A stretch of 20,588 nucleotides of DNA from an uncultured archaeon (GTDB lineage Archaea > Asgardarchaeota > Thorarchaeia > Thorarchaeales > Thorarchaeaceae), in the NCBI GenBank assembly GCA_964458565.1, contig CAYWJO010000054.1:1-20588 (forward strand). The letters are read 5' to 3'. Below, one piece after another: positions 234 through 20,588 of the stretch (position 1 is the stretch's first letter; each line of letters opens with the position of its first letter). The notes below the pieces were generated by a model. That model did not search any database. It worked only from the letters and a program-made list of their open reading frames with translations, and had not been told where the DNA came from. Made by a program: the position numbers and the translations under genes.

Positions 234-824
234 ATGAATAGAATGAATCCTAGGGTTGATGCATATTTAAGCAAAGCCACAGAGTGGCAGGAAGAATTTG
301 AGAGATTGAGAAGGATCATTCTTGACTGTGGGCTGACCGAAGAATGGAAGTGGGGTAAACCTTGCTACACGTTCAAGAAAAGCAACATAGTTTTGATACA
401 TGGATTCAAAGAATACTGTGCGCTTCTGTTTTTCAAAGGTGCCTTGTTAAATGATACCAAGGGTATTCTAGTAACACAGACGGAAAATGTGCAGGCGGCG
501 CGCCAGATTCGATTCACCAATGCTCGAGAAATAGTTGAGATGGAACCCAGCTTGAAGGCCTATATTTTTGAAGCCATTGAAGTGGAAAAAGCCGGTTTGA
601 AAGTAGATTTCAAAAAGACTACAGAATTCATAATTCCTGAAGAATTTCAAACTAAATTAGATGAAATCCCTGCCTTGAAAACTGCTTTTAATGCATTGAC
701 ACCAGGACGGCAAAGAGCATACATTCTTTATTTTTCTCAACCCAAGCAATCCAAAACCCGGGAGTCAAGGGTTGAAAAATGCATGCAGCAAATTCTCAAT
801 GGAAAGGGATTAAATGATCGGTAA
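234..824 (+). CDS. ydeI: YdeI family protein (DUF1801 + YdeI/OmpD-associated domain)
   Basis: Motifs KWGKPCY, LIHGFKEYCALLFFKGALL, QTENVQAARQIRFT and AFNALTPGRQRAY closely resemble Bacillus YdeI. Confidence 0.9.
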   Translation: MNRMNPRVDAYLSKATEWQEEFERLRRIILDCGLTEEWKWGKPCYTFKKSNIVLIHGFKEYCALLFFKGALLNDTKGILVTQTENVQAARQIRFTNAREIVEMEPSLKAYIFEAIEVEKAGLKVDFKKTTEFIIPEEFQTKLDEIPALKTAFNALTPGRQRAYILYFSQPKQSKTRESRVEKCMQQILNGKGLNDR

Positions 825-3101: not shown

Positions 3102-3956
3102 ATGCCTGCGATATCCGCAAAAGCAGAAGTAAACGAAGCTATTGTACTAGCTGCAGGCCTCGGATCTCGAATGCAACCTAGTTTCGCGGATGGGCCAAAA
3201 CCATTGATTCCAGTACTTGGCACACCCCTCCTGGAGTACGTTCTGAGAGGCCTCGATGAGATAGGCATTAAAAGAACCATTGTCGTCACAGGGAGAGAAG
3301 GAGCGTCGATTCACCGTTGGCTCTTTAAAACAGACTTCCTGATGGAGGTAGACCCCGTCCATAATGTTGACTATATACTGGGAAACGGAATATCTGCCCA
3401 AGTTGGTTTGGAATACGTAGCCAGTGACAACGTTCTACTGGTGATGGCAGATCATCTGGCACTGCCAGACCTATATGAGAGAGTACTCGATAGAAGAAAC
3501 ACTGGGATCGACCTTGGACTTGTTGTGGACTACAATCCCTCTGTTTTACTCCAATTGGATGATGCTACTAAGGTCTTGGTCAACAAGAGGCGTGAGATAC
3601 TTGAGATTGGCAAGGATATCAAGAAGTGGAATTGTGTTGATACGGGAGTCTTTTTGGTCTCAAGAGAATTCTCTTCAGCGGTCAATTCAGTGGTTCGAGG
3701 AAGTGGCGATTGTACATTGACTGAAGCGGTTCGATACATGATTGCTGCAGGCATGGACGTGCAGACATGGGACACGAATGGAGCATTCTGGCTTGACATC
3801 GACACACCGTTGGATTTAGAAAATGCTGAACGAGTCATCCTCGGCAATCCAAGGATTCGTACTATGTTAGAAGTCTTAGTTGAAGAAGAATCTGTAACCA
3901 CAAAGGAAATCCAGGACACGGATGTGTGGCCATCTGACATTGAGGGAGAGTATTGA
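3102..3956 (+). CDS. Nucleotidyltransferase, inositol-1-phosphate cytidylyltransferase (IPCT)-like
   Basis: AIVLAAGLGSRM..PKPL, MADH, VDTGVF and WLDIDTPLDL motifs, adjacent to a DIPPS-like gene. Confidence 0.85.
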   Translation: MPAISAKAEVNEAIVLAAGLGSRMQPSFADGPKPLIPVLGTPLLEYVLRGLDEIGIKRTIVVTGREGASIHRWLFKTDFLMEVDPVHNVDYILGNGISAQVGLEYVASDNVLLVMADHLALPDLYERVLDRRNTGIDLGLVVDYNPSVLLQLDDATKVLVNKRREILEIGKDIKKWNCVDTGVFLVSREFSSAVNSVVRGSGDCTLTEAVRYMIAAGMDVQTWDTNGAFWLDIDTPLDLENAERVILGNPRIRTMLEVLVEEESVTTKEIQDTDVWPSDIEGEY

Positions 3957-4708
3957 ACAGCGACATCCAAGCCAATGCTGAAAAGCATCTCGTGGAGGGA
4001 CCCATTTCTAGGCATCTAAACAGGAGAATATCTCGACCGATTGCCAGACGCATTAAGGATGTCACTTGGCTCACTCCGAACCGTGTGTCAGTCATCGCAC
4101 TGCTCTTTGCTATGCTGGCTGCTTCTTCATATTCATTTGGTAGCCTCTTGATACCAGGAGTGTGGCATGTCTTTGGTTTATTCATCATATCCCCCACTCT
4201 AGTCATTGGCGGAATGCTAGTACAACTAAGTAGCATTATCGATGGGGTGGATGGGGACCTTGCTCGGATAAGGGGAGTGTCCTCTGATGAGGGAGCCATT
4301 TTCGATGCTGTGCTGGATAGATATGCAGACATTGTGATTCTCGCAGGCATTGCATATCCCTTATTGAAAGGCGTAGCAGACATCGAGGTGCTACCTGGGT
4401 TTCCCCTGAACTTGATGGTGAGTCAGGATATGGTCTTCATCACTTTGGTGGCAGCTGTCATTGGATCCCTTATGGTGAGCTATTCTAGAGCTCGGCTTGA
4501 GGTAGCTGAGCTGTTCAGTATCCATGGACTGGTCAGGTTTGGAGCAACACGTGATGTTAGGTTGTTCCTCATCTTTGTGTGTTCACTACTGAGCTATACA
4601 TTCATTGCTCTACTGATGATAGCCATAATGGGGAATCTAACTGTCTTGCTCAGGCTTTTGTCAATTCTGCGGACAGAAAAATCGAAGGAGGACATTCAGC
4701 TTGCTTAG
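3953..4708 (+). CDS. CDP-alcohol phosphotransferase, DIPP synthase-like
   Basis: Signature DGVDGDLAR..GAIFDAVLDRYAD, TPNRVS and N-terminal GPISRHLNRRISRPI. 4-nt overlap with the upstream gene. Confidence 0.88.
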   Translation: MNSDIQANAEKHLVEGPISRHLNRRISRPIARRIKDVTWLTPNRVSVIALLFAMLAASSYSFGSLLIPGVWHVFGLFIISPTLVIGGMLVQLSSIIDGVDGDLARIRGVSSDEGAIFDAVLDRYADIVILAGIAYPLLKGVADIEVLPGFPLNLMVSQDMVFITLVAAVIGSLMVSYSRARLEVAELFSIHGLVRFGATRDVRLFLIFVCSLLSYTFIALLMIAIMGNLTVLLRLLSILRTEKSKEDIQLA

Positions 4709-5522
4709 ACTGGGCGCTACTTATTTCCCGGGTCGTTCGGGTTCAATCCAGACGTTTTTCGAACTGTGCCATGAGTTAGGTCTTCAATATGTGGAGATAC
4801 AGGTAGAGCATCCATACTCTCCAGCAGACTTGCACAAGGAAGGAGTCATGGAACTCAGAGAGATGTTCTCTGGATATGGACTCATTCCGCTAATCCACGG
4901 TCCGGTCTACGACATCAACTTAGCTAGTACAAAGGAGCGGATACGACAGGCATCAGTTGAAATCACGAAGGACTTCATCAAACTTGCACGTAGAGTAGAC
5001 TCTCAGCAGGTGGTTATTCATGCTGGAAAATGTCCGCAGGATCAAGTGCCGCTTTTACTCGCCAGAGCGCGGGAATGCGCATTCCTTAGCGTTTCCAAAC
5101 TTGCGCTATTCGCAAATGACCTCGGTGTGAAACTCGGCATCGAGAATAAACAGAGAAGCGCGGATAGAGAGATAGTCCTAACAGTTGATGACCATCTTCA
5201 AATGACTTCGGAGTTTCAGCACCTAGGGGTGTTCGCAGTCTTGGACATAGGACATGCCTTCACAACTGGAGAACGCATCACAGACTATATACATGCACTC
5301 GGAAACAGCTTGCGAGAGATTCACTTTCACGACAACAATGGTGAAACTGATGACCACTTAGCCTTAGGACATGGTAATGTTCCCTTGAAAGAAGTAGTCG
5401 AAGCGCTACGCGCCATCGATTTCAGCGGAGTGTCGATAATCGAGGTAAAGCGGAAGGAAGATCTCAGAGCTAGTGTCAAGTATCTGAGAAAGTTGGATCG
5501 CCAACCAGCTAGGACTGGATAA
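4701..5522 (+). CDS. Sugar phosphate isomerase/epimerase (xylose-isomerase-like TIM barrel, AP_endonuc_2)
   Basis: LGIEN, LDIGHA, IHFHDNNGETDDHLALGHG and IIEV metal-binding motifs. Confidence 0.88.
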   Translation: MLRLGATYFPGRSGSIQTFFELCHELGLQYVEIQVEHPYSPADLHKEGVMELREMFSGYGLIPLIHGPVYDINLASTKERIRQASVEITKDFIKLARRVDSQQVVIHAGKCPQDQVPLLLARARECAFLSVSKLALFANDLGVKLGIENKQRSADREIVLTVDDHLQMTSEFQHLGVFAVLDIGHAFTTGERITDYIHALGNSLREIHFHDNNGETDDHLALGHGNVPLKEVVEALRAIDFSGVSIIEVKRKEDLRASVKYLRKLDRQPARTG

Positions 5523-5790: not shown

Positions 5791-5991
5791 AAAAAACGTA
5801 CTGGAAAAAGAAGTTGGTTACACCTTGACCTCTATGCAAATAACAGAGATGAAGAGGTTGAACGACTAGTCAAGCTTGGTGCAACTCGTTATCCATGGAG
5901 ATATGAGCCAGATCATGATTACATTGTACTGGAAGATCCCGATGGAAACCTCTTCTGTGTGGTTCAAGACGACAGCGAACCTGATAGCTAG
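5791..5991 (+). pseudogene. 5'-truncated VOC/glyoxalase-like gene fragment
   Basis: Startless frame reads KRSWLHLDLYANNRDEEVERLVKLGATRYPW..YIVLEDPDGNLFCVVQ and is preceded by an in-frame TAA at 5788-5790. Confidence 0.8.
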
Positions 5992-6047
5992 ACAGATGAG
6001 AGATGGAATCAAACGATGCATCTGATATTGACTCGGAGAAGGAGTCA

Positions 6048-6244
6048 TGCAAAATGGAGAGGGCACTCAACACGATGCGCAAAGGGGCAAGTCCCTGTTA
6101 CTCCATCCCGTCATCCGTCACCTTCAGCTCTGTCCGAGGACAGAAGCTGACTTCTACCTCTAAGAAGTAGAATATCTTAGGAGGTGATTGATGGAAAGTG
6201 AGAATCACTCTCACAATCTTCCATCCGCAGCTTCCGCTACGGAT
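6048..6244 (-). repeat. Array repeat copy 4 (long form)
   Basis: Core variant GGGCACTCAACA at 6061-6072, then trailer hairpins, AGGAGGTGA at 6179-6187 and the helix-45 complement to 6244. Confidence 0.95.
6179..6244 (-). rRNA. 16S rRNA 3'-terminal fragment with 32-nt BHB intron at 6188-6219
   Basis: Minus strand ATCCGTAGC-GGAA-GCTGCGGATGGA-[32 nt]-TCACCTCCT. Confidence 0.85.
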
Positions 6245-6401
6245 GCTGCAACTTCTATGGCGACCTGTAGCGCGAAGTCCTGAAATTCATACTTGGAGTG
6301 TATCAATGGTTGTCAGAGGAGAGAAACAGTTCTGTACTTGCATCTTTTTGAACTGACGATTAATGGGAAGGCTATTGCTAACAGGGATTAGTGAGAATCT
6401 C

Positions 6402-6758
6402 CTACTGTGGACGAACTTTCTTCTCGTAGAAGTAGTTCATGGCTGAATATACTGTGAATAGACCTTTCTTACGTCCTATAATCAGACCAGCCTTCTCTAA
6501 TATCGCAAGATGATGCGAAATTGTGCTTTTCGACTTATTCATAATATGTGCTAGAATAGTCAGACAATACTCTCCCTCTTGCAGCAGGCGGTACATCTTA
6601 TATCTCAGGTCATGCCCCAATGCACTGTGGTATAATATCTCCTGCTGAGATTGAGTGCTCTGATCAATCTCTTTCAAGACTTTCCTCTGTTTCGCCAAAA
6701 ATGCCTTCGAGCCGATAGTTATACCCATTGCATCCAAACACAATTCCAGTTTCTGCAT
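6402..6758 (-). CDS. ArsR/SmtB family transcriptional regulator
   Basis: ALGHDLRYKMYRLL..SKSTISHHLAILEKAGLI..RKKGLFTVYS winged HTH, divergent from the FmdE/TauE genes. Confidence 0.88.
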   Translation of the reverse strand: MQKLELCLDAMGITIGSKAFLAKQRKVLKEIDQSTQSQQEILYHSALGHDLRYKMYRLLQEGEYCLTILAHIMNKSKSTISHHLAILEKAGLIIGRKKGLFTVYSAMNYFYEKKVRPQ

Positions 6759-6864
6759 TTTCTAACCACTTCATGTCCAAGAAGTCCAAAAGTATCTGGA
6801 ATGGTATTATATTTTTCGGTCTTGTTCGACATTATTGCTGTCAAAATGAAAATAGTTAAATAGA

Positions 6865-6880
6865 TTCGATATTTATCGAA
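6865..6880. promoter_or_regulatory. Palindromic operator, likely for the ArsR regulator
   Basis: TTCGATA-TT-TATCGAA perfect 7-2-7 inverted repeat between the divergent genes. Confidence 0.6.
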
Positions 6881-6896
6881 CTACTAGTGAAAAGGT

Positions 6897-7514
6897 GTGA
6901 ACACACAGCATATACCACCAGAATGGGCCTTTGAGTTCCATGGACATCTTTGCCCGTTTATGCCAATTGGATATCGGATGGGTAGACTGGCAATGAAGTA
7001 TCTCAAAGTAGACCATGAAAAGGATCATGGCTTCTTTGCGTTTCCTGAGATTGGTGAGGGACACCCACAGACCTGCATGGTCGATGGTATTCAGGTGGCA
7101 ACCGGAGCAACTTATGGCAAGGTCTTGATTGCAAAGACCTTCTATGGCAAGCTTGCTACCACATTCTTCAATCCGAAGAAAGGTGCTGTACGCTATTCTC
7201 TTAAACCTGAGTTTATTGATACCATGGGAAAGTTTGAGTTCTTTGCGTATCGGAAAAAGGGAATTGAGCCATCCCTGATTCCAAAGGAAGTGTCAGGAGA
7301 AGTTACCAAATGGACATACGAACAGACGGACGACTTCATGTTCAAGGTAGAACCAAAGCCCGATTTTAAATTCAATCCTGCAAAAGGCTCATTCAACAAG
7401 AGCAAATGTAGCATCTGCGGCGAATATGTGTTTGAGAGGTACTTACGCACCAAGGACGGAGAGTCTGTGTGCATTCCATGCTCAGGCTATATGAAATCAA
7501 GTCCTGAAGCCTAA
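6897..7514 (+). CDS. FmdE family protein with C-terminal zinc finger
   Basis: FHGHLCPFMPIGYRMG, CMVDGIQVATGATYGK and CSICGE..CIPC. Confidence 0.88.
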   Translation: MNTQHIPPEWAFEFHGHLCPFMPIGYRMGRLAMKYLKVDHEKDHGFFAFPEIGEGHPQTCMVDGIQVATGATYGKVLIAKTFYGKLATTFFNPKKGAVRYSLKPEFIDTMGKFEFFAYRKKGIEPSLIPKEVSGEVTKWTYEQTDDFMFKVEPKPDFKFNPAKGSFNKSKCSICGEYVFERYLRTKDGESVCIPCSGYMKSSPEA

Positions 7515-7529
7515 GATGCAAAGCAGTGG

Positions 7530-8306
7530 GTGGGCATCAGTATGGATATTGTACTTCTATACGCCATCATCCTTACCTTTCTAATAGCTTTTGTGTTCTC
7601 GATGTTTGGTCAGGGGGGAGGGTCAGTATACTCCCCAATACTGATTCTGCTTGGTTACGCAGTATTGCTTTCTACTTCCACATCACTAGTGTTGAACCTA
7701 ATAACATCGCTTTCTGCGGGCTATATCTTTTACCGCAACAAGATGATAGATTTGAGAACATCACTCCTATTCGTGCCTGGTATCGGTCTTGGAGCCTTCA
7801 TGGGCGGAGCACTAGCCGTATTTGCTGATACTGTCCTCATGTTATGGCTGTTCGTGTTTTTTCTCATCATTATGGGAGCGAGGATGATCTATACTTACTG
7901 GGAAAGGGGAATGACTGAAGGAAGCTCTCCAAAAGGGCTGTCCACAGCCGTGTATGTACTGATTGTCTTTTTCAGTTTCGCTGTGGGATTCATCTCTGGT
8001 CTGCTCGGGGTTGGTGGTGGAGTGTTAATCGTTCCATTCATGGTCTATGTGTGTAAGTATCCTGCGAAGTTTGCAGCAGGTTCATCGCACTTGATTATAT
8101 CATTCTCAGCGTTTTTCGGCATATTAGGTCATGCGGCAACTCACGAATTAGACATCCTATTGATCATAACGACTGCCATTGCCGTTCTCATCGCTGGAAA
8201 CCTTGGGGCCAGAACTAGTATGAGGCTAAAACCTCAGAAAATTAAGGCAGGGCTAGGCATCATAATGTGGGTGCTTGCTGTCATGCTTATTGTGAGCCTC
8301 ATTTGA
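7530..8306 (+). CDS. TauE/SafE (TSUP) sulfite-exporter family permease
   Basis: About 8 TM segments with duplicated glycine motifs FSMFGQGGGSVYSP and SGLLGVGGGVLIVP. Confidence 0.88.
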   Translation: MGISMDIVLLYAIILTFLIAFVFSMFGQGGGSVYSPILILLGYAVLLSTSTSLVLNLITSLSAGYIFYRNKMIDLRTSLLFVPGIGLGAFMGGALAVFADTVLMLWLFVFFLIIMGARMIYTYWERGMTEGSSPKGLSTAVYVLIVFFSFAVGFISGLLGVGGGVLIVPFMVYVCKYPAKFAAGSSHLIISFSAFFGILGHAATHELDILLIITTAIAVLIAGNLGARTSMRLKPQKIKAGLGIIMWVLAVMLIVSLI

Positions 8307-8684: not shown

Positions 8685-8885
8685 ATGATCTTTGAGCCCA
8701 CTCCTGATGAGAGATGGGACCTTGATGCCGCCCTCGAACTGGTCAGGGAGAGACTTGAGACAATTGTAGCTGAGTATTTTGGTGAGGATGACGAGGTCAA
8801 GGTTGCGAAGAGAGTTGCTGACTATGATGACGTGATGCGAAGTGTAAGAAACTCGCTCAGAGAGCTTCGTCGGAAACGACGATAG
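8685..8885 (+). CDS. Small hypothetical protein or 3' gene fragment
   Basis: Charged helical composition, ends about 15 nt before repeat copy 5. Confidence 0.4.
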   Translation: MIFEPTPDERWDLDAALELVRERLETIVAEYFGEDDEVKVAKRVADYDDVMRSVRNSLRELRRKRR

Positions 8886-8899
8886 TTTCCACTCGGCTT

Positions 8900-8943
8900 G
8901 ATAGACTATGAAAAATATAGGGTGCTCAACATGATGCACAAAG
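8900..8943 (-). repeat. Array repeat copy 5 (very short form)
   Basis: GATAGACTATGAAAAATATAGGGTGCTCAACATGATGCACAAAG. Confidence 0.88.
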
Positions 8944-8965: not shown

Positions 8966-10141
8966 ATGATATTGATGAGGATGAGAGTTTGGTATCAAAG
9001 AGTGGAACAATATCTGTTATTGACGATACTTTTACTCCTTTCAGTCATCATCCCACCATTGACCGATTCTAAATTGTATGATGAAAATCAGAGTTTGAAT
9101 AATGGTGATACTATCTGGGAAGAAATTGAGCATGATTATATTCGAGACAATACGGAAGCAATGGATATTGTCTTTAGAAACGCTACACACGGATGGGTAT
9201 TGAGTCAGAATAAGACAAGTTTCGGAGATGGTATTATCTTGCACACTACTGATAGTGCTCTATCATGGAAGCTTCAATACCACAATAAGACAAATTTTCT
9301 GAATAAGATACTCCTTTTCACTAACAATATTTGGGTGACGGGAAGAGGAGGTCTGCTTCATTCTATTGATGATGGTAAATCATGGGAGTATGTCTCCATC
9401 GATGACGAGGTGGGATATTTCTATGGTATCTTCTTCTTGAATGAAACTCTAGGTTGGGCTGGTTCTGAACGCGGCCTTTACAAGACTGTAGATGGAGGAG
9501 CCACGTGGAACAAGACGTTATTATATCCATATGAGGGCAGAGCACGAGACATCTACTTCACAACCCCGATGAATGGATGGATTATCCACTCATATGGAAT
9601 CTATCATACCACTGATGGAGGTGACTCTTGGGAACTACAACATGACCGAGGTGGTTGGTCTTTCTCCTTTGTTAGTGATACTGAGGCATGGGCCGTTGGT
9701 GATAACATGCTTGCTCACATGACTGATGGAGAAGTCTGGGCTGAACAACCACTCCCTCCAAGTCGTTATGGCAATCCTCCGTACATGAATGATATATTCT
9801 TCATGAACAAGACCCATGGATGGATAGGAGCCCTCACTCCTCAGATTGCACATACCAAGAATGGAGGAATTGATTGGTATTCACAGTCAGTTTCAGGCGA
9901 TAAATCAATAATCACATTGTACCTATTCAATGAATCTCTTGGATGGGCTGCAGGTTGGGATGGGCGAATTTACAGGACGACTAGAGCAAACGAACCAGAA
10001 ACCTATTCTTGGGGTAGCACAAATACCACTCTACTAACCAGCGTCAGCATCTTAATCATAGCAATTGTGATTATCTCAATTGTGCTTGTACGATTCAGGA
10101 AGAGACCCTCCGTTACACCTTCAGCTCCCGCCATTGAATAA
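8966..10141 (+). CDS. YCF48/BNR-repeat beta-propeller surface protein
   Basis: Repeated Asp-box units (SIDDGKSW, TVDGGATW, TTDGGDSW, TKNGGIDW) with F.N...GW motifs, an N-terminal signal/TM and a C-terminal TM with basic tail. Confidence 0.85.
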   Translation: MILMRMRVWYQRVEQYLLLTILLLLSVIIPPLTDSKLYDENQSLNNGDTIWEEIEHDYIRDNTEAMDIVFRNATHGWVLSQNKTSFGDGIILHTTDSALSWKLQYHNKTNFLNKILLFTNNIWVTGRGGLLHSIDDGKSWEYVSIDDEVGYFYGIFFLNETLGWAGSERGLYKTVDGGATWNKTLLYPYEGRARDIYFTTPMNGWIIHSYGIYHTTDGGDSWELQHDRGGWSFSFVSDTEAWAVGDNMLAHMTDGEVWAEQPLPPSRYGNPPYMNDIFFMNKTHGWIGALTPQIAHTKNGGIDWYSQSVSGDKSIITLYLFNESLGWAAGWDGRIYRTTRANEPETYSWGSTNTTLLTSVSILIIAIVIISIVLVRFRKRPSVTPSAPAIE

Positions 10142-10200
10142 TATCACATTGGTTCCACAGTATTCACTTGCGAATATGTTCGTCACCGATAGGAATTGAC

Positions 10201-10346
10201 ATTGCAAAAGAAATAGGGTGCTCAACATGATGTGCAAGGGCAAGTCCCTGTTACTCCATCCCGTCATCCGTCACCTTCGGCTCTGTCCGAGGACAGAAGC
10301 TGACTTCTACCTCTAAGAAGTAGAAAAATCTTAGGAGGTGATTGAT
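10201..10346 (-). repeat. Array repeat copy 6 (trailer + anti-SD, truncated inside the intron)
   Basis: Core at 10216-10227 and AGGAGGTGA at 10333-10341. Similarity ends 5 nt into the intron. Confidence 0.95.
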
Positions 10347-10488: not shown

Positions 10489-10746
10489 ATGATGGGTCTG
10501 ACTACTGAAAGTCAAATCGGAAAAAAACATGCGATATATCTTCCAAAGATAATAGTTGAAGAAATAGATTTGCGAGAAGGAATGAAGATATTGATCACTG
10601 TGGATGGAAACAAGCTCATCATCGAACCATTGCCAGATCCTATAACATTAGCAAAGAAAGGAAAAAAGTTCGCTACAATGACGATTGATGAAATGGAGGC
10701 TGTCAGCATTGAAGAGCAAACAAAACGCTCAGAGAATTCTTCTTGA
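10489..10746 (+). CDS. AbrB/MazE/SpoVT family antitoxin
   Basis: IGKKHAIYLPKIIVEEIDLREGMKILITVDGNKLIIEP swapped-hairpin motif, overlapping the PIN gene. Confidence 0.88.
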   Translation: MMGLTTESQIGKKHAIYLPKIIVEEIDLREGMKILITVDGNKLIIEPLPDPITLAKKGKKFATMTIDEMEAVSIEEQTKRSENSS

Positions 10747-11161
10747 TACATCCTTTCTCATGCCCACTATAGGAATTGAGGTTGAAAAACAAGTACTGGA
10801 TACAGTTTCAAAAATCCAACCCGGAAAATATGAAATCCTCTATTCCAACCTCAGTCTACTCGAATGCACGTGGATGGCAATAAAACAGATGAAAGCATCA
10901 AAATATAGAGAAGAAATATTCAGAAAAGGTGTGTTGAGTATCGCAAAGACTGGGTATTATAATCTCATCCATGAAGATGCTGAAGACTATTTGTATGCAC
11001 TTCAACTCTATCAGATGGGTCATATAGATATGATCGATAACCTGTTGTATGCAATTGCATTGAGGAATGAATGTTCTTTTCTCACAATTGATAGGGAGCT
11101 TCAAGAATTCATCGATAAGAATGATGTGAGAGATGTCATTTTAACTCCTGAAGAGTTTTGA
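10709..11161 (+). CDS. vapC: PIN-domain (VapC-like) toxin
   Basis: ILLDTSFL, SLLE, DMIDNLLYAIA and FLTIDREL. TTG start at 10709 chosen because GGAGG precedes it. Confidence 0.85.
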   Translation: MKSKQNAQRILLDTSFLMPTIGIEVEKQVLDTVSKIQPGKYEILYSNLSLLECTWMAIKQMKASKYREEIFRKGVLSIAKTGYYNLIHEDAEDYLYALQLYQMGHIDMIDNLLYAIALRNECSFLTIDRELQEFIDKNDVRDVILTPEEF

Positions 11162-11196
11162 AAAACTTCGAATGCAAAATAATGGGGAGTGTCAAT

Positions 11197-11276
11197 ACAA
11201 AAGAGATAGGGTGCTCATCGGGATCTACAGTGGGCAAGTCCTTGGTACCCCAACCCGTCATCCACCAACTTCATTC
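11197..11276 (-). repeat. Array repeat copy 7 (short, degenerate)
   Basis: CAAAAGAGATAGGGTGCTCA..GGGCAAGTCC..AACCCGTCATCCACCAACTTCA. Confidence 0.85.
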
Positions 11277-11336
11277 TATTCAAAGTCAAATGATTTAAGG
11301 AATATTATATTGACAAAGAAGTATAACAAAATGGAT

Positions 11337-11759
11337 TCATCTTAGGAATGTTAGTACATCAGGTAGTAATCCACGTTCCAAAGAAGTATCAATTTCCTTT
11401 TCTTTATGAACAAAAAGAGCCATTCCTCCTAGAAGAACTGCACCTGCTATAGTGTAACAATCTGGTAGAGAAATTGGCGCTTTGCATTTAATCTTTGCAG
11501 CTTCTTTCCATACTATTTCTGTGGGGATTACCCTGATAGCGCCTGAATTGAGAAGATTTTCACTCTTCTTTTTAGCAACCTTCCAACTAGATTTTCTACA
11601 GACTATATAGACGAGTTCACTCATAGCAATTTCTGTACAGAAATAGAGTGTTTCTCCTGATATGATTCTTTGTGAAAGTTTTTTCGCGGATGCTTCTTCA
11701 GTGACTAAGGCGATTAAGACTCCGCCATCAAGAATAACTGAAGAACTATCTGTTTCCAT
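11337..11759 (-). CDS. vapC: PIN-domain (VapC-like) toxin
   Basis: VILDGGVLIAL, AMSELVYI and ISLPDCYTIAGA motifs. Confidence 0.85.
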   Translation of the reverse strand: METDSSSVILDGGVLIALVTEEASAKKLSQRIISGETLYFCTEIAMSELVYIVCRKSSWKVAKKKSENLLNSGAIRVIPTEIVWKEAAKIKCKAPISLPDCYTIAGAVLLGGMALFVHKEKEIDTSLERGLLPDVLTFLR

Positions 11760-11994
11760 TGTCTAATCGCCTCTCAGATAGGAGCTCAGTATACATTTCT
11801 TCAAATGATGTATTTGGAATAGGTTGGGTGAAGGTTCGCCAAGCATCTAAATCGAATTTCTGTCTTGAATACAATGCAATCAAGTACTGAATTACTGTAT
11901 CAAAATCAACTCGTTCCTGTCGTATCTTCTGGAGATCTGCAGCAATTTGAAGAAGCTCTTTCCTTGTCTTTTCCTTGATTGAGATAGTAGCCAT
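11746..11994 (-). CDS. VapB-type antitoxin
   Basis: MATISIKEKTRKELLQIAADLQ..VDFDTVIQYLI, overlapping the toxin start. Start trimmed from the ORF-track 12123. Confidence 0.8.
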   Translation of the reverse strand: MATISIKEKTRKELLQIAADLQKIRQERVDFDTVIQYLIALYSRQKFDLDAWRTFTQPIPNTSFEEMYTELLSERRLDNGNR

Positions 11995-12007
11995 AACAAC
12001 CATTGTA

Positions 12008-12028
12008 TAATACACATCTATTGTATTA
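12008..12028. promoter_or_regulatory. Inverted repeat, putative TA autoregulatory operator
   Basis: TAATACA-N7-TGTATTA immediately upstream of the antitoxin start. Confidence 0.45.
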
Positions 12029-12103
12029 AACACAACGATTCTAGTCTTAGTGATAAATCCCCAACAGATAGAAATTGTCGCATAGATTTCACATACTCTT
12101 TCG

Positions 12104-12203
12104 TGAACCCACTTCACACTCAATTGGATAGACTATGAATAAAATAGGGTCCTCAACATGATGTGCTAAGGGAAAGTCCCTTTACAATCCAACCCGTCAT
12201 CCA
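12104..12203 (-). repeat. Array repeat copy 8 (short form with extended flank)
   Basis: TGAACCCACTTCACACTCAATTGGATAGACTATGAATAAAATAGGGTCCTCAACATGATG..AACCCGTCATCC. Confidence 0.92.
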
Positions 12204-12224
12204 ATCCGATGATTGCATCCACAT

Positions 12225-12725
12225 TCATTCCAATTCTGAGAGGACTCTGGAATATAAGGCTGTAGACATATGAAAGGTGGTTTCTTCAACAAGAAAACGA
12301 ATCTTGGCGCGGGATTCCTTTTTCAGTAGTAGTCCTTTCTTCGTTGCGGACAGAATGATCCCGACAGTTCCAATCAACTCAAGACCCAAAGTCCTAGCAA
12401 CATCTCTTGCAGCCAAGTCATCTATGACAATAACAGAGTCTGCTTCTTTCTTGGTATGAAACGCGAGTACAAGAGCGTCTATCTCGCCCTTATGGAGTCC
12501 CATATCACTCAGCTTACTTGTGAGCGAACTTTCTGGGACCTCAGATACAATCAACCAGTCAGAAAATGCGCTTTTCAAGATTGCATACTCTGATTCAGAG
12601 GTGTCAAGGACTTCATCCTTAACAGTAGCAACAGTGATTACTTTGTCGAATAACTGCTGCAATAGATCAAGTATGCCAAGCTTTCCCAGGTAAATAAGGG
12701 GCGATGCATTGACGATTGCAATCAA
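12225..12725 (-). CDS. DUF3368 family PIN-like toxin
   Basis: IVNASPLIYL, LHKGEIDALVLA and IDDLAARDVARTLGLELIGTVGIL. Confidence 0.88.
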   Translation of the reverse strand: MIAIVNASPLIYLGKLGILDLLQQLFDKVITVATVKDEVLDTSESEYAILKSAFSDWLIVSEVPESSLTSKLSDMGLHKGEIDALVLAFHTKKEADSVIVIDDLAARDVARTLGLELIGTVGIILSATKKGLLLKKESRAKIRFLVEETTFHMSTALYSRVLSELE

Positions 12726-12726
12726 T

Positions 12727-13038
12727 TCAAATGCCCTCTGCGAATATCAAGTCCTCTGCAAGTGATTGTTCCTCATACATTGCTATTTTGCGTTCTGCCA
12801 GTTCTTTCATCATTGCTCTTAGTGGAATCTCAGCAATAGCTGCAGCTTTCCAAATACTGAGACGTCTAGCTGCGACCTCCTCAGACAGATAATCGAGAAG
12901 ATCAGCTGAAAGAGACCTATCTATGAGCTGACGTACGTATGATGATTTGTCAACAATCTTCCTTTTCTCCATCAGAAAAGTTAGTCGTTTCTCCAATTCT
13001 GCATCCATTCTCACTGAGAGTACATCACCCATCTTCAA
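12727..13038 (-). CDS. UPF0175 family antitoxin with N-terminal RHH
   Basis: VLSVRMD..DKSSYVRQLI and LSIWKAAAIAEIPLRAMMKEL. Usual partner of DUF3368. Confidence 0.82.
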   Translation of the reverse strand: MKMGDVLSVRMDAELEKRLTFLMEKRKIVDKSSYVRQLIDRSLSADLLDYLSEEVAARRLSIWKAAAIAEIPLRAMMKELAERKIAMYEEQSLAEDLIFAEGI

Positions 13039-13285: not shown

Positions 13286-13356
13286 AATTTGTTCCTCAGA
13301 TTTTCATATGGCAGTTCAGATATAAAACCACAACCATTGGTTCTGTAAGATTGTTT

Positions 13357-13429
13357 GACTATGAATAAAATAGGGTCCTCAACATGGTGTGCTAAGGGAA
13401 AGTCCCTTTACAATCCAACCCGTCATCCG
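13357..13429 (-). repeat. Array repeat copy 9 (short form)
   Basis: Nearly identical to copy 8 over GACTATGAATAAAATAGGGTCCTCAACATG..CCCGTCATCC. Confidence 0.92.
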
Positions 13430-13472
13430 CTGGATTCTGTATAATTTGGTCTGATTCTAATGCATGAGGAAA

Positions 13473-14531
13473 TTACAATGCTTTCAATGCTTGTTCTAGA
13501 GTTGATTTGAATCTACTTATTCTATCTTTCTTTATACCTTCACTAATTTCCTTGTCATTTGCAAGTTGAATCTCTATCTCTCTCTTACGTAAAGGTTTGA
13601 TGAGTTCTGGTTCTTCTACGTTGATTCCCACGGGACGGTTCTTAGGAAGGGGTTCAGGTAATGAAAGTACACGAAAGTCCTTTTTAAGATTCAAAGTAAA
13701 AATCCCCTTTTTCTCTTTCACTTTATCAATCTGATCAAGCCAAATATAGTCAACACTACCAAAGTATGCATGATTGTCTGAATCTGGATAATAGAATTTA
13801 GCATACTTAGGCTTGTTAGCAATGGCTACACTTGACATAACTCCAGGATAGATCATTATACTAGCTTGGCTATATGGTGATGGATTTTTATCGTCTGGTA
13901 AATCGTTTCCAACAAAAATCAGTCTCTTGTTTGTAAGAAATAATCCGGGCATCTTGTACTTATCAATTACTTGGCTCATGCACGTAATTCCATAGTCTAT
14001 ATGCATTAATTCTTCTTCATCCTGAAACACTTGTTGAGCAATACTTAGTAAAAGATCTAAAGCTATCAAACGTGAATAAGATAGATATTCATCCAGTTTA
14101 AGAATATCAGACTGTAGATTATATGTATCATCTTTAGCATAAAGATTAGCAATAATCTCAAAAGTTGGAAAAACTCCCTCAGTATCAACAGATGGATATC
14201 CCTTCAGTAGCAAGTCAATAGCAAGATTGTCATGGGTTTTCAGAATACTCTCGAAGTACTCTATAATCTCATCTCTTTTCTGGATGATTTTTTCAATTAA
14301 TTCCCAATAATCGTGGGTAATATTATCCAAACTAGGAATTATTTGACGACCTTCCCACTCAAAAAGACGTTGAGCATTAGTGGATACAATTAAAGGTGGA
14401 TCTCCATCATTGGCGTCATCTGGAGATTGACCATCAAACAACAATGGATAGCTATACAATTCCTTCGAAAATTCATCTAATCTGGTAAGAATATCATCAA
14501 TCATACTCAATAAATCCCCATGATTAAACAT
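13473..14531 (-). CDS. Hypothetical protein, possible PH/GRAM-like domain
   Basis: Long AT-rich ORF. GLFLTNKRLIFV and IWLDQIDKVK resemble PH-fold motifs. Confidence 0.7.
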   Translation of the reverse strand: MFNHGDLLSMIDDILTRLDEFSKELYSYPLLFDGQSPDDANDGDPPLIVSTNAQRLFEWEGRQIIPSLDNITHDYWELIEKIIQKRDEIIEYFESILKTHDNLAIDLLLKGYPSVDTEGVFPTFEIIANLYAKDDTYNLQSDILKLDEYLSYSRLIALDLLLSIAQQVFQDEEELMHIDYGITCMSQVIDKYKMPGLFLTNKRLIFVGNDLPDDKNPSPYSQASIMIYPGVMSSVAIANKPKYAKFYYPDSDNHAYFGSVDYIWLDQIDKVKEKKGIFTLNLKKDFRVLSLPEPLPKNRPVGINVEEPELIKPLRKREIEIQLANDKEISEGIKKDRISRFKSTLEQALKAL

Positions 14532-14605
14532 TAAAGAAATCTCATATTTATCAATTCTGTAAGATTTTTTTATCTAGCATCTTCTCTGAATATTAAACTG
14601 CTGTA

Positions 14606-14683
14606 TTGTAAAAGAGAGGGTGCTCAACATGGTGTACAAGGGCAAGTCCCTGTTACTCCAACCCGTCATCCACCCACTTCACT
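14606..14683 (-). repeat. Array repeat copy 10 (short form)
   Basis: TTGTAAAAGAGAGGGTGCTCAACATGGTG..GGGCAAGTCCCTGTTACTCCAACCCGTCATCCACCCACTTCAC. Confidence 0.92.
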
Positions 14684-14711
14684 TCTCACGCTGAGCGTTA
14701 TAATTAGTTGA

Positions 14712-16940
14712 TTATTCCTGATTTAATTCGTCCACTGCCTTTCTTGCTTCATCTTCAAGTTCTCGTTCTTTCTTCACCTTTTCTCGTTTTTCAAGGTAGG
14801 GACGAGAGAGGTAGATACCGACTCCTGCCAGAGCTGCACCTAGAACGAAGATTCCGAGGATTATAGGCAGGTTGTAAAGAAGGAATTCATTGAGAGGGAT
14901 TAGAGGATTGAGTGGATCAAATCCATTAATCACCTCCCAACCATCGGGAATTGAGTCCATATCGCTATCAGGGTCATTAGGATCAGTATGGTGCAGGAAT
15001 TCCTGAGCATTGGATAGAGCGTCATTGTCCAAGTCTTCTGAAGCATCTTGAGGATCTAGAGGATTCAGACCGTGTGCCAACTCCCATGAGTCAGACATGC
15101 TGTCTGAATCGGTGTCACTATTGACAGGCGAGGTACCATAGATGAACAGCTCACTGTAGTCATCAAGTGAGTCATGATCAGTGTCATTGCTAAATCGATT
15201 GGTATCGAATACCGTTTCGTTGAAGTCAGGAATCAAGTCGCCATCACTGTCACTCATATCACCTAGTTTGAAGATGAAGCTATCAGAAGTGCCATTTAGA
15301 GTATCATCATAGCCATTGTAGTGTGGAAAGTCATCAGACCCAGTCAAACCAGTGACATATGCAAAACCTAAGTCATCAATATAGATGGATGAGGTTGAAT
15401 CGTAATGTGATCCTCCAACGAAGGTCGAATAGAGGAGAAGCCCATTGACTACATCAATCTTTGTCACAAACACATCTCGATTCCCATTATGTGATGAATC
15501 ATAGGCATTGAGAGTCGGAAAATCCAGTGAGTATGTCATGCCAGCTACATATGCACCATCATGATCATCTGCAATCAATGCAAAAGCGATATCATCACTA
15601 TTGCCTCCGAGATATGTAGAGAAGGAGATGGAACTCGCCTCCGAATCTATCGCCAACAAGAATGAGTCCACACCTCCATGAATGTTGCTAGCAAACGCAT
15701 GAGAGGTTGTGAAGTCATCTGATGTTGTTTCACCACAGACAATGATGGCACCACTAGAGCTCATGTCAATTGAATGAGCAGAGTCACTTGCGTTCCCTCC
15801 GAAAAAGGTTGAGAAGAGAAGTGAATCACCAGTTGGAGCCAGTTTTGCGATGAAGCAATCTTGGCTACCATTGAGTGTGTCATCAAGGGGATTCATCAGA
15901 GGGAAGTCCGGAGATTCAGTGTATCCAGAGATGATGACATTTCCCATTCTATCAAGGGTGATTGATGTGCTTACATCGTCAAGGATTCCTCCAAGATAAG
16001 TCGAAAATACGAGACCATTTCCAGTGGCGTTCAGCTGGCAGATGAAACAATCCCAATGCTCTACATACACATCACCATTATAGGTTTCATCATATCCATG
16101 TGTCGTGGGAAATGTAGGCGAGTTCGTATATCCTGTGACATAGGCATTTCCTACCTCATCGACTGTAATTGAGGTTGCCAAATCACGGCTTCCTGAGTAA
16201 GGAAAAATAAAACCACCACCTATTAGTGAGGAGTATATCAAACCATTACCAGTGGCATTTAGCTTTATAATAAAGGCATCATGACCATCAGCATCAGGAC
16301 TTACATATCCATTTACACATGGAAAATCGTTTGAATCAGTCCATCCAGAGACGTATACATTTCCCATTGAATCTACATAGATAGATGTACCAACATCATT
16401 AGATCTCCCACCGATGATTGTTGAATATATCAATCCGTTACCAGTGGAATTGAACTTGGCTACAAAGCAGTTAATTGAACTATTATAATCAGTTGTGAGA
16501 TTGACAGTCATTGGAAAGTCTGATGCACCAGTATAACCAGTCACGTATATATTACAATCCGGGTCTACAGCAATGTCTGTCATTTCCACATGATCAACCA
16601 ACTCACTACCACCAAAATAGGTTGAAAAAATGAGAGGTGAGGGAATGGCATTGGGATTGATATCACTTTTATCAAATTCTAATTCAATCTCATGCAAGCA
16701 AGAGATAGTCGGATCTCTCTTCGTGGCGACACTGTTTATGATTGGTATAAATGGATTTACACTGATGGTTTCAAAAAGGGAGTGGTTAACTTGTCTGATG
16801 TTGCATGAGATCAAGAGAGCAACTGTAAGGAGAAGGATAATGTGAATCTTCTTCAATCTCGTGATAGAGGGTATTCTCATCAGAGAACTCAGAACCCGAT
16901 ATGTCTTCACATTACCCGATTTTTTCACCGTTCCAAACAA
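14712..16940 (-). CDS. SBBP beta-propeller repeat surface protein with Ca-binding TSP3-like repeats and C-terminal TM anchor
   Basis: Repeated STY.GG..D....I.VD..GN.YV.G.T.S.DFP units and DSDGDLIPD/DTDSDSMSDSWE repeats. Start may be at 16880. Confidence 0.88.
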   Translation of the reverse strand: MFGTVKKSGNVKTYRVLSSLMRIPSITRLKKIHIILLLTVALLISCNIRQVNHSLFETISVNPFIPIINSVATKRDPTISCLHEIELEFDKSDINPNAIPSPLIFSTYFGGSELVDHVEMTDIAVDPDCNIYVTGYTGASDFPMTVNLTTDYNSSINCFVAKFNSTGNGLIYSTIIGGRSNDVGTSIYVDSMGNVYVSGWTDSNDFPCVNGYVSPDADGHDAFIIKLNATGNGLIYSSLIGGGFIFPYSGSRDLATSITVDEVGNAYVTGYTNSPTFPTTHGYDETYNGDVYVEHWDCFICQLNATGNGLVFSTYLGGILDDVSTSITLDRMGNVIISGYTESPDFPLMNPLDDTLNGSQDCFIAKLAPTGDSLLFSTFFGGNASDSAHSIDMSSSGAIIVCGETTSDDFTTSHAFASNIHGGVDSFLLAIDSEASSISFSTYLGGNSDDIAFALIADDHDGAYVAGMTYSLDFPTLNAYDSSHNGNRDVFVTKIDVVNGLLLYSTFVGGSHYDSTSSIYIDDLGFAYVTGLTGSDDFPHYNGYDDTLNGTSDSFIFKLGDMSDSDGDLIPDFNETVFDTNRFSNDTDHDSLDDYSELFIYGTSPVNSDTDSDSMSDSWELAHGLNPLDPQDASEDLDNDALSNAQEFLHHTDPNDPDSDMDSIPDGWEVINGFDPLNPLIPLNEFLLYNLPIILGIFVLGAALAGVGIYLSRPYLEKREKVKKERELEDEARKAVDELNQE

Positions 16941-17377: not shown

Positions 17378-17603
17378 GAACTATGGTCCACACTAACCTG
17401 GATAATATGAAAAAGATAGGGTGCTCAATATGATGTGCTAAGGGAAAAGCCCTTTTACAATCCAACCCGTCATCCGTCACCTTCGGCTCTGTCCGAGGAC
17501 AGAAGCTGACTTCTACTTCTAAGAAGTAGAAAATCTTAGGAGGTGATTGATGGAATGTGAGAATCACTCTCACCATCTCCCATCCGCAGCTTCCGATATG
17601 GAT
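17378..17603 (-). repeat. Array repeat copy 11 (long form, mosaic)
   Basis: Core GGGTGCTCAATA at 17419, first hairpin of the copy 8/9 type, remainder like copies 4/6. Confidence 0.95.
17538..17603 (-). rRNA. Degenerate 16S rRNA 3'-terminal fragment with 32-nt BHB intron at 17547-17578
   Basis: Minus strand ATCCATATC-GGAA-GCTGCGGATGGG-[32 nt]-TCACCTCCT, with substitutions that break helix 45 pairs. Confidence 0.8.
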
Positions 17604-17696
17604 TGATTTGTTTAACTACATAAAATGATAGACACAATTTGAACATTCCAGTGTTCACGCAATTCTTGTTACTCAATCAATATCTGTGCCTCATTA

Positions 17697-18113
17697 CTAT
17701 GCGATGTGGCATAAACCCGCAAAGTCAGAATCAAATGTGGCTATGTAGCCAACATCATTGGTATCGATGAATGATAGAATACAGCAATCGGTGAAACTAA
17801 GGGGTTTTTCAGGCCATTTGGCATAGCGTTCCCATTTCTCCCACGCAAGTCTCAAAACATCAGGTGTTACATATTCAAACTTGATGAACTCAGGTGTACT
17901 TCGAACGAGGGTGTAAGCCTTTTTCACTACACCCTTTTGATGGGTATGCATCCAAAGAGTTGTGAGTACTTCATCTAACACATAATCAATCGTGAGCCGC
18001 ATACCGTAGTCTGGATTCTTAAGCTTGGTAAGAAGCTCTCTTGCGTTTCGATGGTTCCGGTCTCGCGTGTTCAGCAATGCAATGAAGACATTACTATCTA
18101 TGAGGACTGTCAC
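17697..18113 (-). CDS. vapC: PIN-domain (VapC-like) toxin
   Basis: VLIDSNVFIAL, YVLDEVLT, LSFTDCCI and IATFDSDF. Confidence 0.9.
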   Translation of the reverse strand: MTVLIDSNVFIALLNTRDRNHRNARELLTKLKNPDYGMRLTIDYVLDEVLTTLWMHTHQKGVVKKAYTLVRSTPEFIKFEYVTPDVLRLAWEKWERYAKWPEKPLSFTDCCILSFIDTNDVGYIATFDSDFAGLCHIA

Positions 18114-18394
18114 GTGGAGTCACCGCCATAGACAACATCATCTACACTCGATGAGAGATCTTCACTGCCAGGCCCAAAATCTTCAGCTAGGGACAGGACC
18201 TTTTCAATAATATCATCATCCAAAGGATAGTCCATCAATCGCACCTCATTGACAATCAGTTCATAATTCTCAAGACCAATCCTGAACACAATCTCCAGTA
18301 TGTCCTTCTTTGTCAGACGCTTTCGTGTATCAAGATATAGACGAGCCTGCAGTTCTTCCAAGTCATCCTTGAGGTCAAACTTCACTGTGGACAC
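18110..18394 (-). CDS. Putative cognate antitoxin
   Basis: Small acidic protein ending EDLSSSVDDVVYG, overlapping the toxin start by 4 nt. Confidence 0.78.
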   Translation of the reverse strand: MSTVKFDLKDDLEELQARLYLDTRKRLTKKDILEIVFRIGLENYELIVNEVRLMDYPLDDDIIEKVLSLAEDFGPGSEDLSSSVDDVVYGGDST

Positions 18395-18696
18395 CTGTTA
18401 CACCCAGTAACTAAGTAACCATTTTAGCATATAAACTTGTGGAGTTCTACGTTTCATGCCTATCAACTCACCCGCTCGGATACTAAATACTCCAAAGCGG
18501 TCAGATGTTTAGGATTGACATTCAAAAGCTTGGAAGCATCACCAGGAGTAATTGTTCCTTCATGCAATGCGTCGAATATGATAGAAGGTATTTAGGTAGA
18601 GTAAGGGGATTGTAAGGTATCTAGGAAAAAGATCAGTAGAACCTGGTTCATCTCTCTTTCTGGATGGGGAGCAATTGGTACTTCAACTCATGAGAA

Positions 18697-19099: not shown

Positions 19100-19177
19100 A
19101 TTGCAAAATAGAAAGGGAGGCTCAACAAAGAACATGTACTGGGAAAGTTCCCTGGTTACCTGACCCCGTCATAAGCC
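19100..19177 (-). repeat. Array repeat copy 12 (short, divergent lineage)
   Basis: TTGCAAAATAGAAAGGGAGGCTCAACAA..GTACTGGGAAAGTTCCC..GACCCCGTC, shared with copy 13. Confidence 0.85.
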
Positions 19178-19324
19178 TTTTTCCTTTTTACCTCCAAGAC
19201 TCGTTCCCTGATATAGCTAATTGTTTATGATGGAATGAAAGCACTCTGCTCTATTTTTCTTTTTCAGTAATTCACCTTCCAGAATGATGAATGATCTGTA
19301 ATCGCTTGATGTTTCTTGATCTGT

Positions 19325-20092
19325 TCAATGGTGTACCTGCAGACGCATCACAGTATCACGTTCTCGATCAAGAACTGGTTTGAATCCACGTTTTGCATAC
19401 ATGCTTTGAGGCCCCCGAAAATGTGCAGCATCATTTTTTTCTGGTTCATTGCGAGGGTATCCTTCAATCCATAATGCTCCACGGGTAGCTGCCTCTTCAA
19501 TCACATGGTCAAGCAGAGCTGATGCAACTCCATGTCTTCGATAGGGCGGAGCAATCACAAAACACGAAATACCAATTACTGATGCAGGTTCAGGACCATC
19601 AGGATCAACTTGTTGAAACATCTTATAGTCACTACGAAGAGATGCGTTTACCCATCCCACCGGCTTATTATCAACATATGCTAAGTATCCGTAAGTTTCT
19701 CCCTTTGACAGGCGATCAATCATGATTGATCGTTTTTCTCGCCATGGACGTCCATGGTTCTCATCTGTTGGAGGTATATGTGGTTCAAGACAGTAGCAAG
19801 AAGCCCAAGCAGGATTATCTGTGAAACCATCATGATCGAAAAAATGTAGCCAATCATCTATGGAGTCCTTTGTGACTGGATGTATAGTGATTTCGCCAAT
19901 TTCTTCTTTTCTTACTGTATCACCTGTGAGTCGCTTTACTGCTTCTATATAATTGCGGACATAGTTTCTTACTTCTCTTTCGGGATACTCCCAAGAATGG
20001 TTCTTGTGACCATGTGCTACAAAAAGATCCACAAGTGCTTCTAGGGTTTCGGCCTCAATCACTTCATCACAATCAAAGCATCTGACTTTCAT
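19325..20092 (-). CDS. GNAT family acetyltransferase with small N-terminal Cys/His (DUF1059-like) domain
   Basis: ISCFVIAPPYRRHGVASALL acetyl-CoA motif, IEGYP and MYAKRGF. N-terminal CFDC..H...H. Confidence 0.88.
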   Translation of the reverse strand: MKVRCFDCDEVIEAETLEALVDLFVAHGHKNHSWEYPEREVRNYVRNYIEAVKRLTGDTVRKEEIGEITIHPVTKDSIDDWLHFFDHDGFTDNPAWASCYCLEPHIPPTDENHGRPWREKRSIMIDRLSKGETYGYLAYVDNKPVGWVNASLRSDYKMFQQVDPDGPEPASVIGISCFVIAPPYRRHGVASALLDHVIEEAATRGALWIEGYPRNEPEKNDAAHFRGPQSMYAKRGFKPVLDRERDTVMRLQVHH

Positions 20093-20183
20093 TGATCATT
20101 CCAACCTGATTAAATCACATGTTTATCTTGAAAGCGAACAAGAAAGAAGATAAATCTGACTTCTGCTTATCCAAGATTGACGT

Positions 20184-20390: not shown

Positions 20391-20588
20391 TTTTGAGTAA
20401 CATATTAGGTTAGAATTTTTGAGAGAGTTCTGATATTTTATTCACGAAGTTAGCAGCATTCTAAGAAATTCTAAGAATAATATGACAGAAAGAATCACGT
20501 ATAATACAATCAGTATTCTTGGAATCCATCTTTCCCTTCGAAAGAACGAACTCAAGAATATATGGAAAACAACTGCGAGGCACGGAAA

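Follow-up and report, generated by a model that had tools for sequence, protein, structure and literature searches.

Displaced copies of the 16S rRNA gene 3′ end probably bound swappable accessory-gene modules in a Thorarchaeota genome

Tandem islands at the 3′ ends of tRNA and tmRNA genes arise by integrase-mediated accretion; archaeal integrated elements and tycheposon-type islands are examples, and they measure 5–100 kb. In eukaryotes, R1 and R2 retrotransposons, which carry the gene for their enzyme, enter the interior of the 28S gene by target-primed reverse transcription. Integrons are a third point of comparison, with rows of small co-oriented modules bounded by repeats, rich in toxin-antitoxin and acetyltransferase genes and ordered differently in related genomes. 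Within the Asgard archaea, HeimM2 and HeimV2 of Candidatus Heimdallarchaeum are 8-kb and 44-kb elements located behind the only 16S gene, one of them with a homing-endonuclease homologue (Wu et al. 2022, PMC8813620). The literature yielded no description of rRNA-tail cassette arrays in Asgard archaea, and the study of Wu et al. is the nearest to it.

The DNA analysed here (the window) is the whole of contig C54, 20,588 nt, of an archaeal metagenome-assembled genome (MAG; 3.73 Mb, 93 contigs, 93% complete). The public runs containing this DNA are salt-marsh metagenomes, and no RNA run is listed among them. The window holds 13 copies of the 16S rRNA gene 3′ end and trailer (tails), full or truncated from the 16S side, all co-oriented on the minus strand and 0.7–3.5 kb apart. 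We consider it likely that these displaced 16S tails bound swappable accessory-gene modules and that the array was built by recombination between tails.

The layout works like tRNA/tmRNA accretion and looks like an integron, and it lacks what defines each, namely an integrase for the former and IntI, apparently also attC, for the latter. As in tRNA and tmRNA islands, a displaced 3′ fragment of a stable RNA gene forms a direct repeat on the far side of the insertion; the incoming DNA would supply the working gene end, growth would proceed outward from the gene, and older fragments would decay. The original prediction had drawn this parallel to the tRNA 3′ fragments of tandem islands, and it holds, as the arrays of at least seven relatives start directly downstream of a native 16S gene. 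The locus differs from such islands in that the target is the 16S end with its processing trailer, the units are only 0.7–3.5 kb, the crossovers vary, and no integrase is found in or near the arrays, nor anywhere in several of the genomes. The likeness to integrons covers all the features named above, whereas IntI and attI are absent here, no attC fold is apparent, the repeat is an rRNA tail, genes lie on both strands and some modules are operons. With R1 and R2 the arrays share an rRNA gene as a safe and conserved landing site; here, however, the DNA sits behind an intact rRNA gene and encodes no enzyme. HeimM2 and HeimV2 resemble the present case in having an Asgard host, foreign DNA exactly behind the only 16S gene and two elements at one site, but they are single elements, and neither duplicated 16S tails nor a multi-module array was reported for them (PMC8813620).

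The minus strand of 6044–6244 is, with near certainty on sequence grounds, a displaced copy of a Thorarchaeota 16S rRNA gene 3′ end followed by its trailer. When a 211-nt query was compared with the native 16S ends of relatives, the identities were 82–87% over about 100 nt (E 5e-20 to 7e-26), and the 21-nt core of the repeat has six matches within the window where none is expected. The resemblance of the repeat to the 16S end, as judged from these matches, is not due to chance. The derivation from a 16S 3′ end that the original prediction had proposed is thus borne out, with helix 45 (25 of 25 positions), the adjoining hairpin and the trailer all matched in the native 16S genes of relatives; these relatives show the same helix 45 and hairpin and a homologous trailer, and not the differing helix and unshared trailer that would have spoken against it. 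It was also right in taking the helix 45 differences for compensatory pairs around the GGAA loop, for the four differences from the E. coli-type helix at 6220–6244 are two double compensatory changes, in the first and the last pair of the stem. The 25-nt helix 45 variant is not in itself diagnostic of Thorarchaeota, being shared by 16S genes of Saccharibacteria, other Patescibacteria and some Chloroflexota (L044–L123).

Two details call for correction. An 'insert' to be removed from the repeat had been assumed between helix 45 and the anti-Shine-Dalgarno (anti-SD) sequence; it is instead a native, lineage-specific 16S hairpin. The hairpin-bearing native 16S genes of G001, G002, G016 and others run unbroken from the conserved region at about position 1400, and no splicing needs to be invoked since these genes have the same hairpin in place. 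Differences between copies in the stem of this 32-nt hairpin are compensatory. The plus-strand complement of the anti-SD at 6179–6188, AGGAGGTGAT, reads as a perfect SD, and together with the ATG beyond it could be mistaken for a translation signal; it is simply the complement of the anti-SD. A match to the Rfam SSU_rRNA_archaea model did not appear, there being only chance matches and none to SSU for 5900–6400 at an E value of 10. This carries little weight and is unsurprising because the fragment covers only about 45 interrupted model positions. The Rfam scan of the whole window at gathering thresholds gave chance matches only. A bulge-helix-bulge intron was considered for the 32-nt hairpin and rejected: such an intron has two 3-nt bulges on opposite strands around a 4-bp helix, whereas here an unbroken helix of 7 bp contains or borders both junctions, and the internal loop is 4 × 1 nt.

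The tail copies form a nested set (Table 1). Their distal end is common to them, with the processing-stem strand, the T-run and sometimes a module of about 40 nt, and their start on the 16S side varies. Four copies enter helix 45 (1–180, 6044–6244, 17401–17603 and 20180–20389) and one, at 10197–10346, ends just past the anti-SD complement, as originally predicted; of the others, six consist of distal trailer only and two are remnants. Upstream of helix 45 every copy in the window passes into unrelated sequence, with copy 1 retaining the most of the 16S gene, up to TAACAAGGTAT. Lacking continuity with the body of a 16S gene, the repeats are displaced copies and not a functional gene end. Most likely the displaced tails are relics without RNA function.

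Table 1. Tail copies, parts of the 6044–6244 copy, and gene modules in the window (positions count from the first base of the window).
Feature	Position	Strand	Evidence and remarks
Tail copy 1, longest 16S fragment, starting at TAACAAGGTAT; helix 45 degenerate (1-nt deletion, GAAA loop)	1–180	−	Continued from the end of C26
Module A: DUF1801/OmdA protein	234–824	+	Pfam; same module at 81–83% identity in G035 and G061 arrays
Tail copy, processing-stem strand of trailer only	1891–1985	−	nhmmer E 1e-19; leader duplex z −6.0
Module B: ParE toxin and DUF7557 antitoxin	1995–2457	−	Pfam; homologues in arrays of six relatives' loci
Remnant: trailer end and post-trailer module	2527–2590	−	Repeat families D11, D12
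Module C: nucleotidyltransferase, CDP-alcohol phosphatidyltransferase, xylose-isomerase-like TIM barrel (lipid-head-group-type operon)	3102–5522	+	Pfam; G042:C103 84% over 2.2 kb
16S 3′ trailer: two hairpins, 3′ strand of pre-16S processing stem, T-run (about 135 nt)	6044–6178	−	Aligns with native trailers of relatives
Anti-SD 3′ end of 16S	6179–6188	−	Aligns with 3′ terminus of relatives' 16S genes
32-nt hairpin between helix 45 and anti-SD, lineage-specific expansion	6189–6220	−	Same place in complete native 16S of G001, G002, G016 and others
Helix 45 (stem and GGAA loop) and first bases of 3′ linker, displaced	6220–6244	−	25/25 identical to native 16S genes of the same family
ArsR regulator (−), FmdE-like protein (+), TauE exporter (+) module	6402–8306	both	Pfam
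Remnant: trailer end and post-trailer module	8877–8942	−	Repeat comparison, nhmmer
BNR/Ycf48-like beta-propeller module	8966–10141	+	Pfam; also in relatives
Tail copy starting just 5′ of anti-SD, without helix 45	10197–10346	−	Repeat alignment, nhmmer
Module D: MazE-type antitoxin and PIN toxin	10489–11161	+	Pfam; in three relatives' arrays
Tail copy, distal trailer only	11190–11290	−	nhmmer
PIN toxin and small partner	11337–12123	−	Pfam
Tail copy, distal trailer and post-trailer module	12104–12203	−	Repeat comparison, nhmmer
Module E: DUF3368/PIN-like protein and UPF0175 antitoxin	12225–13038	−	Pfam; in G002 and G009 arrays
Tail copy, distal trailer only	13356–13432	−	nhmmer
Two single-gene modules: 352-aa protein without family, 742-aa SBBP beta-propeller repeat protein	13473–16940	−	Pfam
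Tail copy, entire processing-stem strand	14605–14697	−	Best own-leader duplex
Full tail copy, 5′ strand of helix 45 eroded	17401–17603	−	Mosaic relative to L038, L039, L169
Module F: PIN toxin and antitoxin	17697–18394	−	Pfam; G055 and G071 arrays 80–82%; L169 95.8%
Tail copy, foreign 'type 2', distal trailer only	19101–19183	−	Repeat family D10
Module G: GNAT acetyltransferase between two type-2 tails	19325–20092	−	Pfam; with its tail 78% identical in G049
Full tail copy, foreign 'type 2', helix 45 intact	20180–20389	−	88% over 154 nt to G002 native tail

The trailer shares with those of relatives a first hairpin with compensatory variation, a conserved second hairpin, a variable segment, a conserved block and the T-run, and an nhmmer profile of the trailer matches the native trailers of relatives. 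In relatives, the conserved block is complementary to part of the 16S 5′ leader, which identifies it as the 3′ strand of the pre-16S processing stem. With the type-1 tails, the genome's own 16S leader (contig C69) pairs over about 65 bp, at energies between −57 and −76 kcal/mol and z scores between −4.3 and −8.5 relative to shuffled sequences. Such pairing is what the two strands of a pre-16S processing stem would show, and it stands in, with a positive outcome, for the originally proposed comparison with the genome's own 16S flank. The duplex of the leader with the 6044–6178 trailer has −67.4 kcal/mol (z −5.3), and its best partner is the copy at 14605–14697 (−75.6 kcal/mol, z −8.5). The pairing is much weaker with the type-2 copies at 19101–19183 (z −3.9) and 20180–20389 (z −2.8). 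Just past the T-run, a module of about 40 nt is present at 2528–2567, 8877–8916 and 12104–12143; it was also observed on the metagenome contigs L169 and L170, and in a looser version at the C26 flank. This module may be the native sequence behind the trailer or a part of the recombining unit.

The tails divide the contig, with the end of C26, into about 12 modules of accessory genes carried on both strands. Five toxin-antitoxin pairs (ParE, MazE-PIN, two PIN pairs and DUF3368/UPF0175), a GNAT acetyltransferase, an ArsR group, small operons, a DUF1801 protein, two beta-propeller proteins and proteins without a known family make up the content, and a Pfam search of the window ORFs detected no recombinase. 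The 742-aa SBBP protein (14712–16940) has a TSP3-like repeat, and its gene contains internal DNA repeats with a period of 192 nt (families D7 and D8). Contigs from four other salt-marsh runs diverge from the window at 825–835, 2531, 13303 and 19169–19171, which are alternative neighbours at strain level. The strain-level junctions fall partly at tail edges and partly outside the tails, for example just after the stop codon at 824 (after 831) or near 18680. As some of them are outside the tails, other processes also act on this DNA.

Arrays of the same kind occur in related genomes. Of 85 further genomes in the family, 53 have the feature by a search with the 211-nt query, and at least 22 carry two or more copies. 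In G061, G002, G049, G091, G035 (a single-contig genome), G003 and G009, the array stands directly behind the native 16S gene, in the orientation of the gene and with kilobase spacing. In G001 the native tail is the only one within 15 kb. Among 97 ORFs from the arrays of relatives, PIN proteins account for 18 and HNH proteins for 3, besides ParE, VapB, HicA, Fic, ArsR, DUF1801 and many families found once; no integrase or recombinase is present among the families listed. Seven modules of the window are found again in these arrays, differently ordered and beside different neighbours. Modules B and F are adjacent in G055, the order is B-F-D in G002 and D-B-F in G071, and B adjoins G in G049. The conserved core of module B, at 70% identity, is too diverged for its unit borders to be placed.

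Several tails point beyond local duplication. Over 154 nt, the copy at 20180–20389 matches the native tail of G002, a member of another genus, at 88% identity; its identity to the neighbouring type-1 copies is only 63%. In G091 and G061 the hairpin is present in displaced tails and absent from the native 16S gene, so that those displaced tails cannot be local duplicates. By these comparisons, tails are imported from other lineages. When pairs of native and displaced tails were compared block by block, the identities were 0.97/1.0/0.65/0.96, 0.87/0.86/0.53/0.93 and 0.48/0.54/0.65/0.94, a pattern by which the tails appear as mosaics from exchanges with different borders. In the tail of module F, the part shared with G055 and G071 is the 16S-proximal one only; the distal part differs. 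The metagenome contig L169 is 95.8% identical to 17409–18680 of the window; inside the tail, after GACGGGTTGGA, it switches to a distal part resembling the copy at 14605–14697 and then continues into a different module. At their 5′ limits the displaced tails vary by about 25 nt, between TAACAAGGTAT and the inside of the helix 45 loop. The clustering of these limits may be a sign of a specific site instead of homology alone.

These observations make a capture array the likely reading of the layout. Incoming DNA would bring its own copy of a 16S tail, and recombination of this tail with the resident one would insert the cargo with one tail on each side. The 16S gene would thereby retain a working end, and the older tail would be displaced outward. 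Repeated insertions would produce an array, in which recombination between tails could reshuffle, export or delete modules. We infer the insertion step, an incoming tail recombining with the resident tail, from this arrangement. Capture with a replacement tail would explain both the four hairpin combinations that occur within one genus (see below) and the displaced tails bearing a hairpin that the resident gene lacks. Taken furthest, the arrays would be an integrase-free platform for gene capture on the tails of single-copy rRNA genes of Asgard archaea, each capture rewriting the 16S 3′ terminus; in this general form the proposal is doubtful.

As to the agent, homologous recombination by the host machinery is our favoured guess, held tentatively at somewhat below even chances, because the known site-specific enzymes are missing and the breakpoints are scattered. 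Next comes a dedicated or trans-acting enzyme that has escaped recognition, a possibility we rate a little lower; it is kept open by the narrow 5′ limit of the tails and by the homing-endonuclease idea of Wu et al. 2022. A recombinase carried by an unbinned virus or plasmid is quite possible. Tyrosine recombinases (PF00589) gave no match in G035, G061, G009 and G091, and the sole match in the genome studied here lies on C53 with no tail nearby. Serine recombinases (PF00239) and HUH enzymes (PF01797) gave none in the present genome (G000), G035, G061, G002 and G091, and Cas1 is absent from the array-bearing G035, G061 and G002. For recombinase families, absence at MAG level is no proof. Logan contigs from four salt-marsh runs contain short joints between repeat copies (sides of 25–59 nt) and loose ends near the repeat edges, which may stem from different copies or strains and are no evidence of excision. 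These contig-level data showed no excised circle, empty site or split read.

The same locus could have arisen by accretion and decay of larger elements with an integrase or homing endonuclease, such as viruses or plasmids of the HeimV2/HeimM2 type, at the 16S tail. The elements of Wu et al. 2022 (PMC8813620) do have their insertion point precisely between the sole 16S gene and a tRNA gene, HNH endonuclease genes are present among the array ORFs of relatives (3/97), and the 5′ limit of the displaced tails is fairly narrow. Nevertheless, no integrase lies in or adjoins any array examined, and the four array-bearing relatives named above are without a tyrosine recombinase. The modules are complete units of 0.7–3.5 kb that recur in several genera, unlike the products of random decay of 10–40 kb elements, and the breakpoints within the tails vary. 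We regard this origin as unlikely.

It is very improbable that the tails are what is left of 16S gene or rRNA operon duplications after loss of all but the ends, with no link to mobility. Helix 45 is indeed eroded in several copies in the manner of a pseudogene, but none of the 13 copies keeps more than about 57 nt of 16S, some tails are of foreign type, and the tails stand at the borders of modules that recur elsewhere in other orders.

A classical integron or attC array (CALIN) worked by IntI would account for co-oriented repeats every 0.7–3.5 kb, for modules of toxin-antitoxin and GNAT genes and for their shuffled order among relatives. The whole repeat, however, is homologous to the 16S end and trailer rather than to an attC palindrome, its folds being rRNA and trailer hairpins; PF00589 has a single match in the genome, on a different contig, and no match in several relatives; the genes are in both orientations; and Rfam gave no match. 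The chance that an integron is responsible is therefore minimal. An equally minimal chance attaches to a regulatory leader on the plus strand, a promoter or 5′ UTR with an SD and a leader peptide driving the downstream modules: four copies do have AGGAGGTGAT followed two bases on by an ATG and a short ORF, but the SD merely mirrors the anti-SD on the opposite strand, the ATG falls opposite a hairpin also present in native 16S genes, the ORF ends differ, the copy differences are mostly non-synonymous with the pairing of the hairpin kept, the neighbouring genes are on either strand, and no peptide conserved across relatives is visible.

Recombination between tails, the reading preferred here, places the array of this genome on the 3′ end of its single 16S gene, as we infer by analogy with relatives. 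A search of the whole assembly confined the repeat to C54 and the end of C26. The C26 end and the start of the window overlap by 55 identical bases, and C26 supplies the missing part of tail copy 1; from this exact match, C26 extends the window leftward. The outermost 16S tail copy is at C26 47777–47853, and positions 1–416 of C26 are the 23S 5′ end (minus strand, running off the contig), which puts the far end of the 16S array about 47 kb from the 23S gene. The C26 genes adjoining the array are acetyl-CoA synthetase and others, with no IntI, and the flank genes show no synteny among the relatives' loci compared. At the right end of the window there is no overlapping contig in the assembly, the last 33 nt were unmatched in the scan of metagenome contigs, and 20390–20588, past the last tail, is not 16S. 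BLAST located only the leader and first 490 nt or so of the genome's 16S gene, at the end of C69 (about 11540–12356), and the 23S gene with its 5′ end at the start of C26 and its 3′ end at the end of C1. Covariance-model searches for SSU and LSU over the 93 contigs gave no match, the C69 16S fragment included; universal 23S motifs sought by regular expression gave one false match within a coding region and no other. With the 16S 3′ end absent from the assembly and the right end of the window not 16S, the attachment of array to gene is drawn from the relatives.

A second array of tails is present in the same genome. With the 23S gene of a relative as BLAST query, the 23S 3′ end and trailer were located at C1 255152–255011, followed by further co-oriented 23S tail copies at C1 249581–249497 and C1 246037–245970; others are at C1 13350–13277 and C64 4718–4777. 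The 23S tails argue for a process that acts on rRNA tails generally and not on one sequence.

If this reading is true, accessory and toxin-antitoxin genes gather at the end of an rRNA gene in the archaeal group nearest to eukaryotes. This gene end would fill the role of an integron without any known integron component and would give Asgard archaea a new route for acquiring genes horizontally. The 16S 3′ end beside the anti-SD may then be exchanged between lineages. Assemblies break at this point of 16S genes, so that 16S is lost from MAGs, and spare 16S ends can mislead counts of primer sites or of rRNA copies. The arrays also make it possible to test how genes are captured, whether through homologous recombination alone or through an enzyme yet to be recognised.

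Two separate hairpin insertions of 30–32 nt were observed in the 3′ minor domain of 16S genes of relatives (L018, L023, L033, L035, L020 and L031), one between GTCGTAA and CAAGGTAT and the other between helix 45 and the anti-SD. All four combinations exist in genus g6, with both hairpins in G062, the second only in G073, the first only in G049 and neither in G061. These insertions may be expansion segments, small introns or traces of tail exchange. In the 16S gene of L008, from another family of the same phylum, helix 45 and the anti-SD are likewise separated by about 33 nt of unrelated inserted sequence, at almost the same position.
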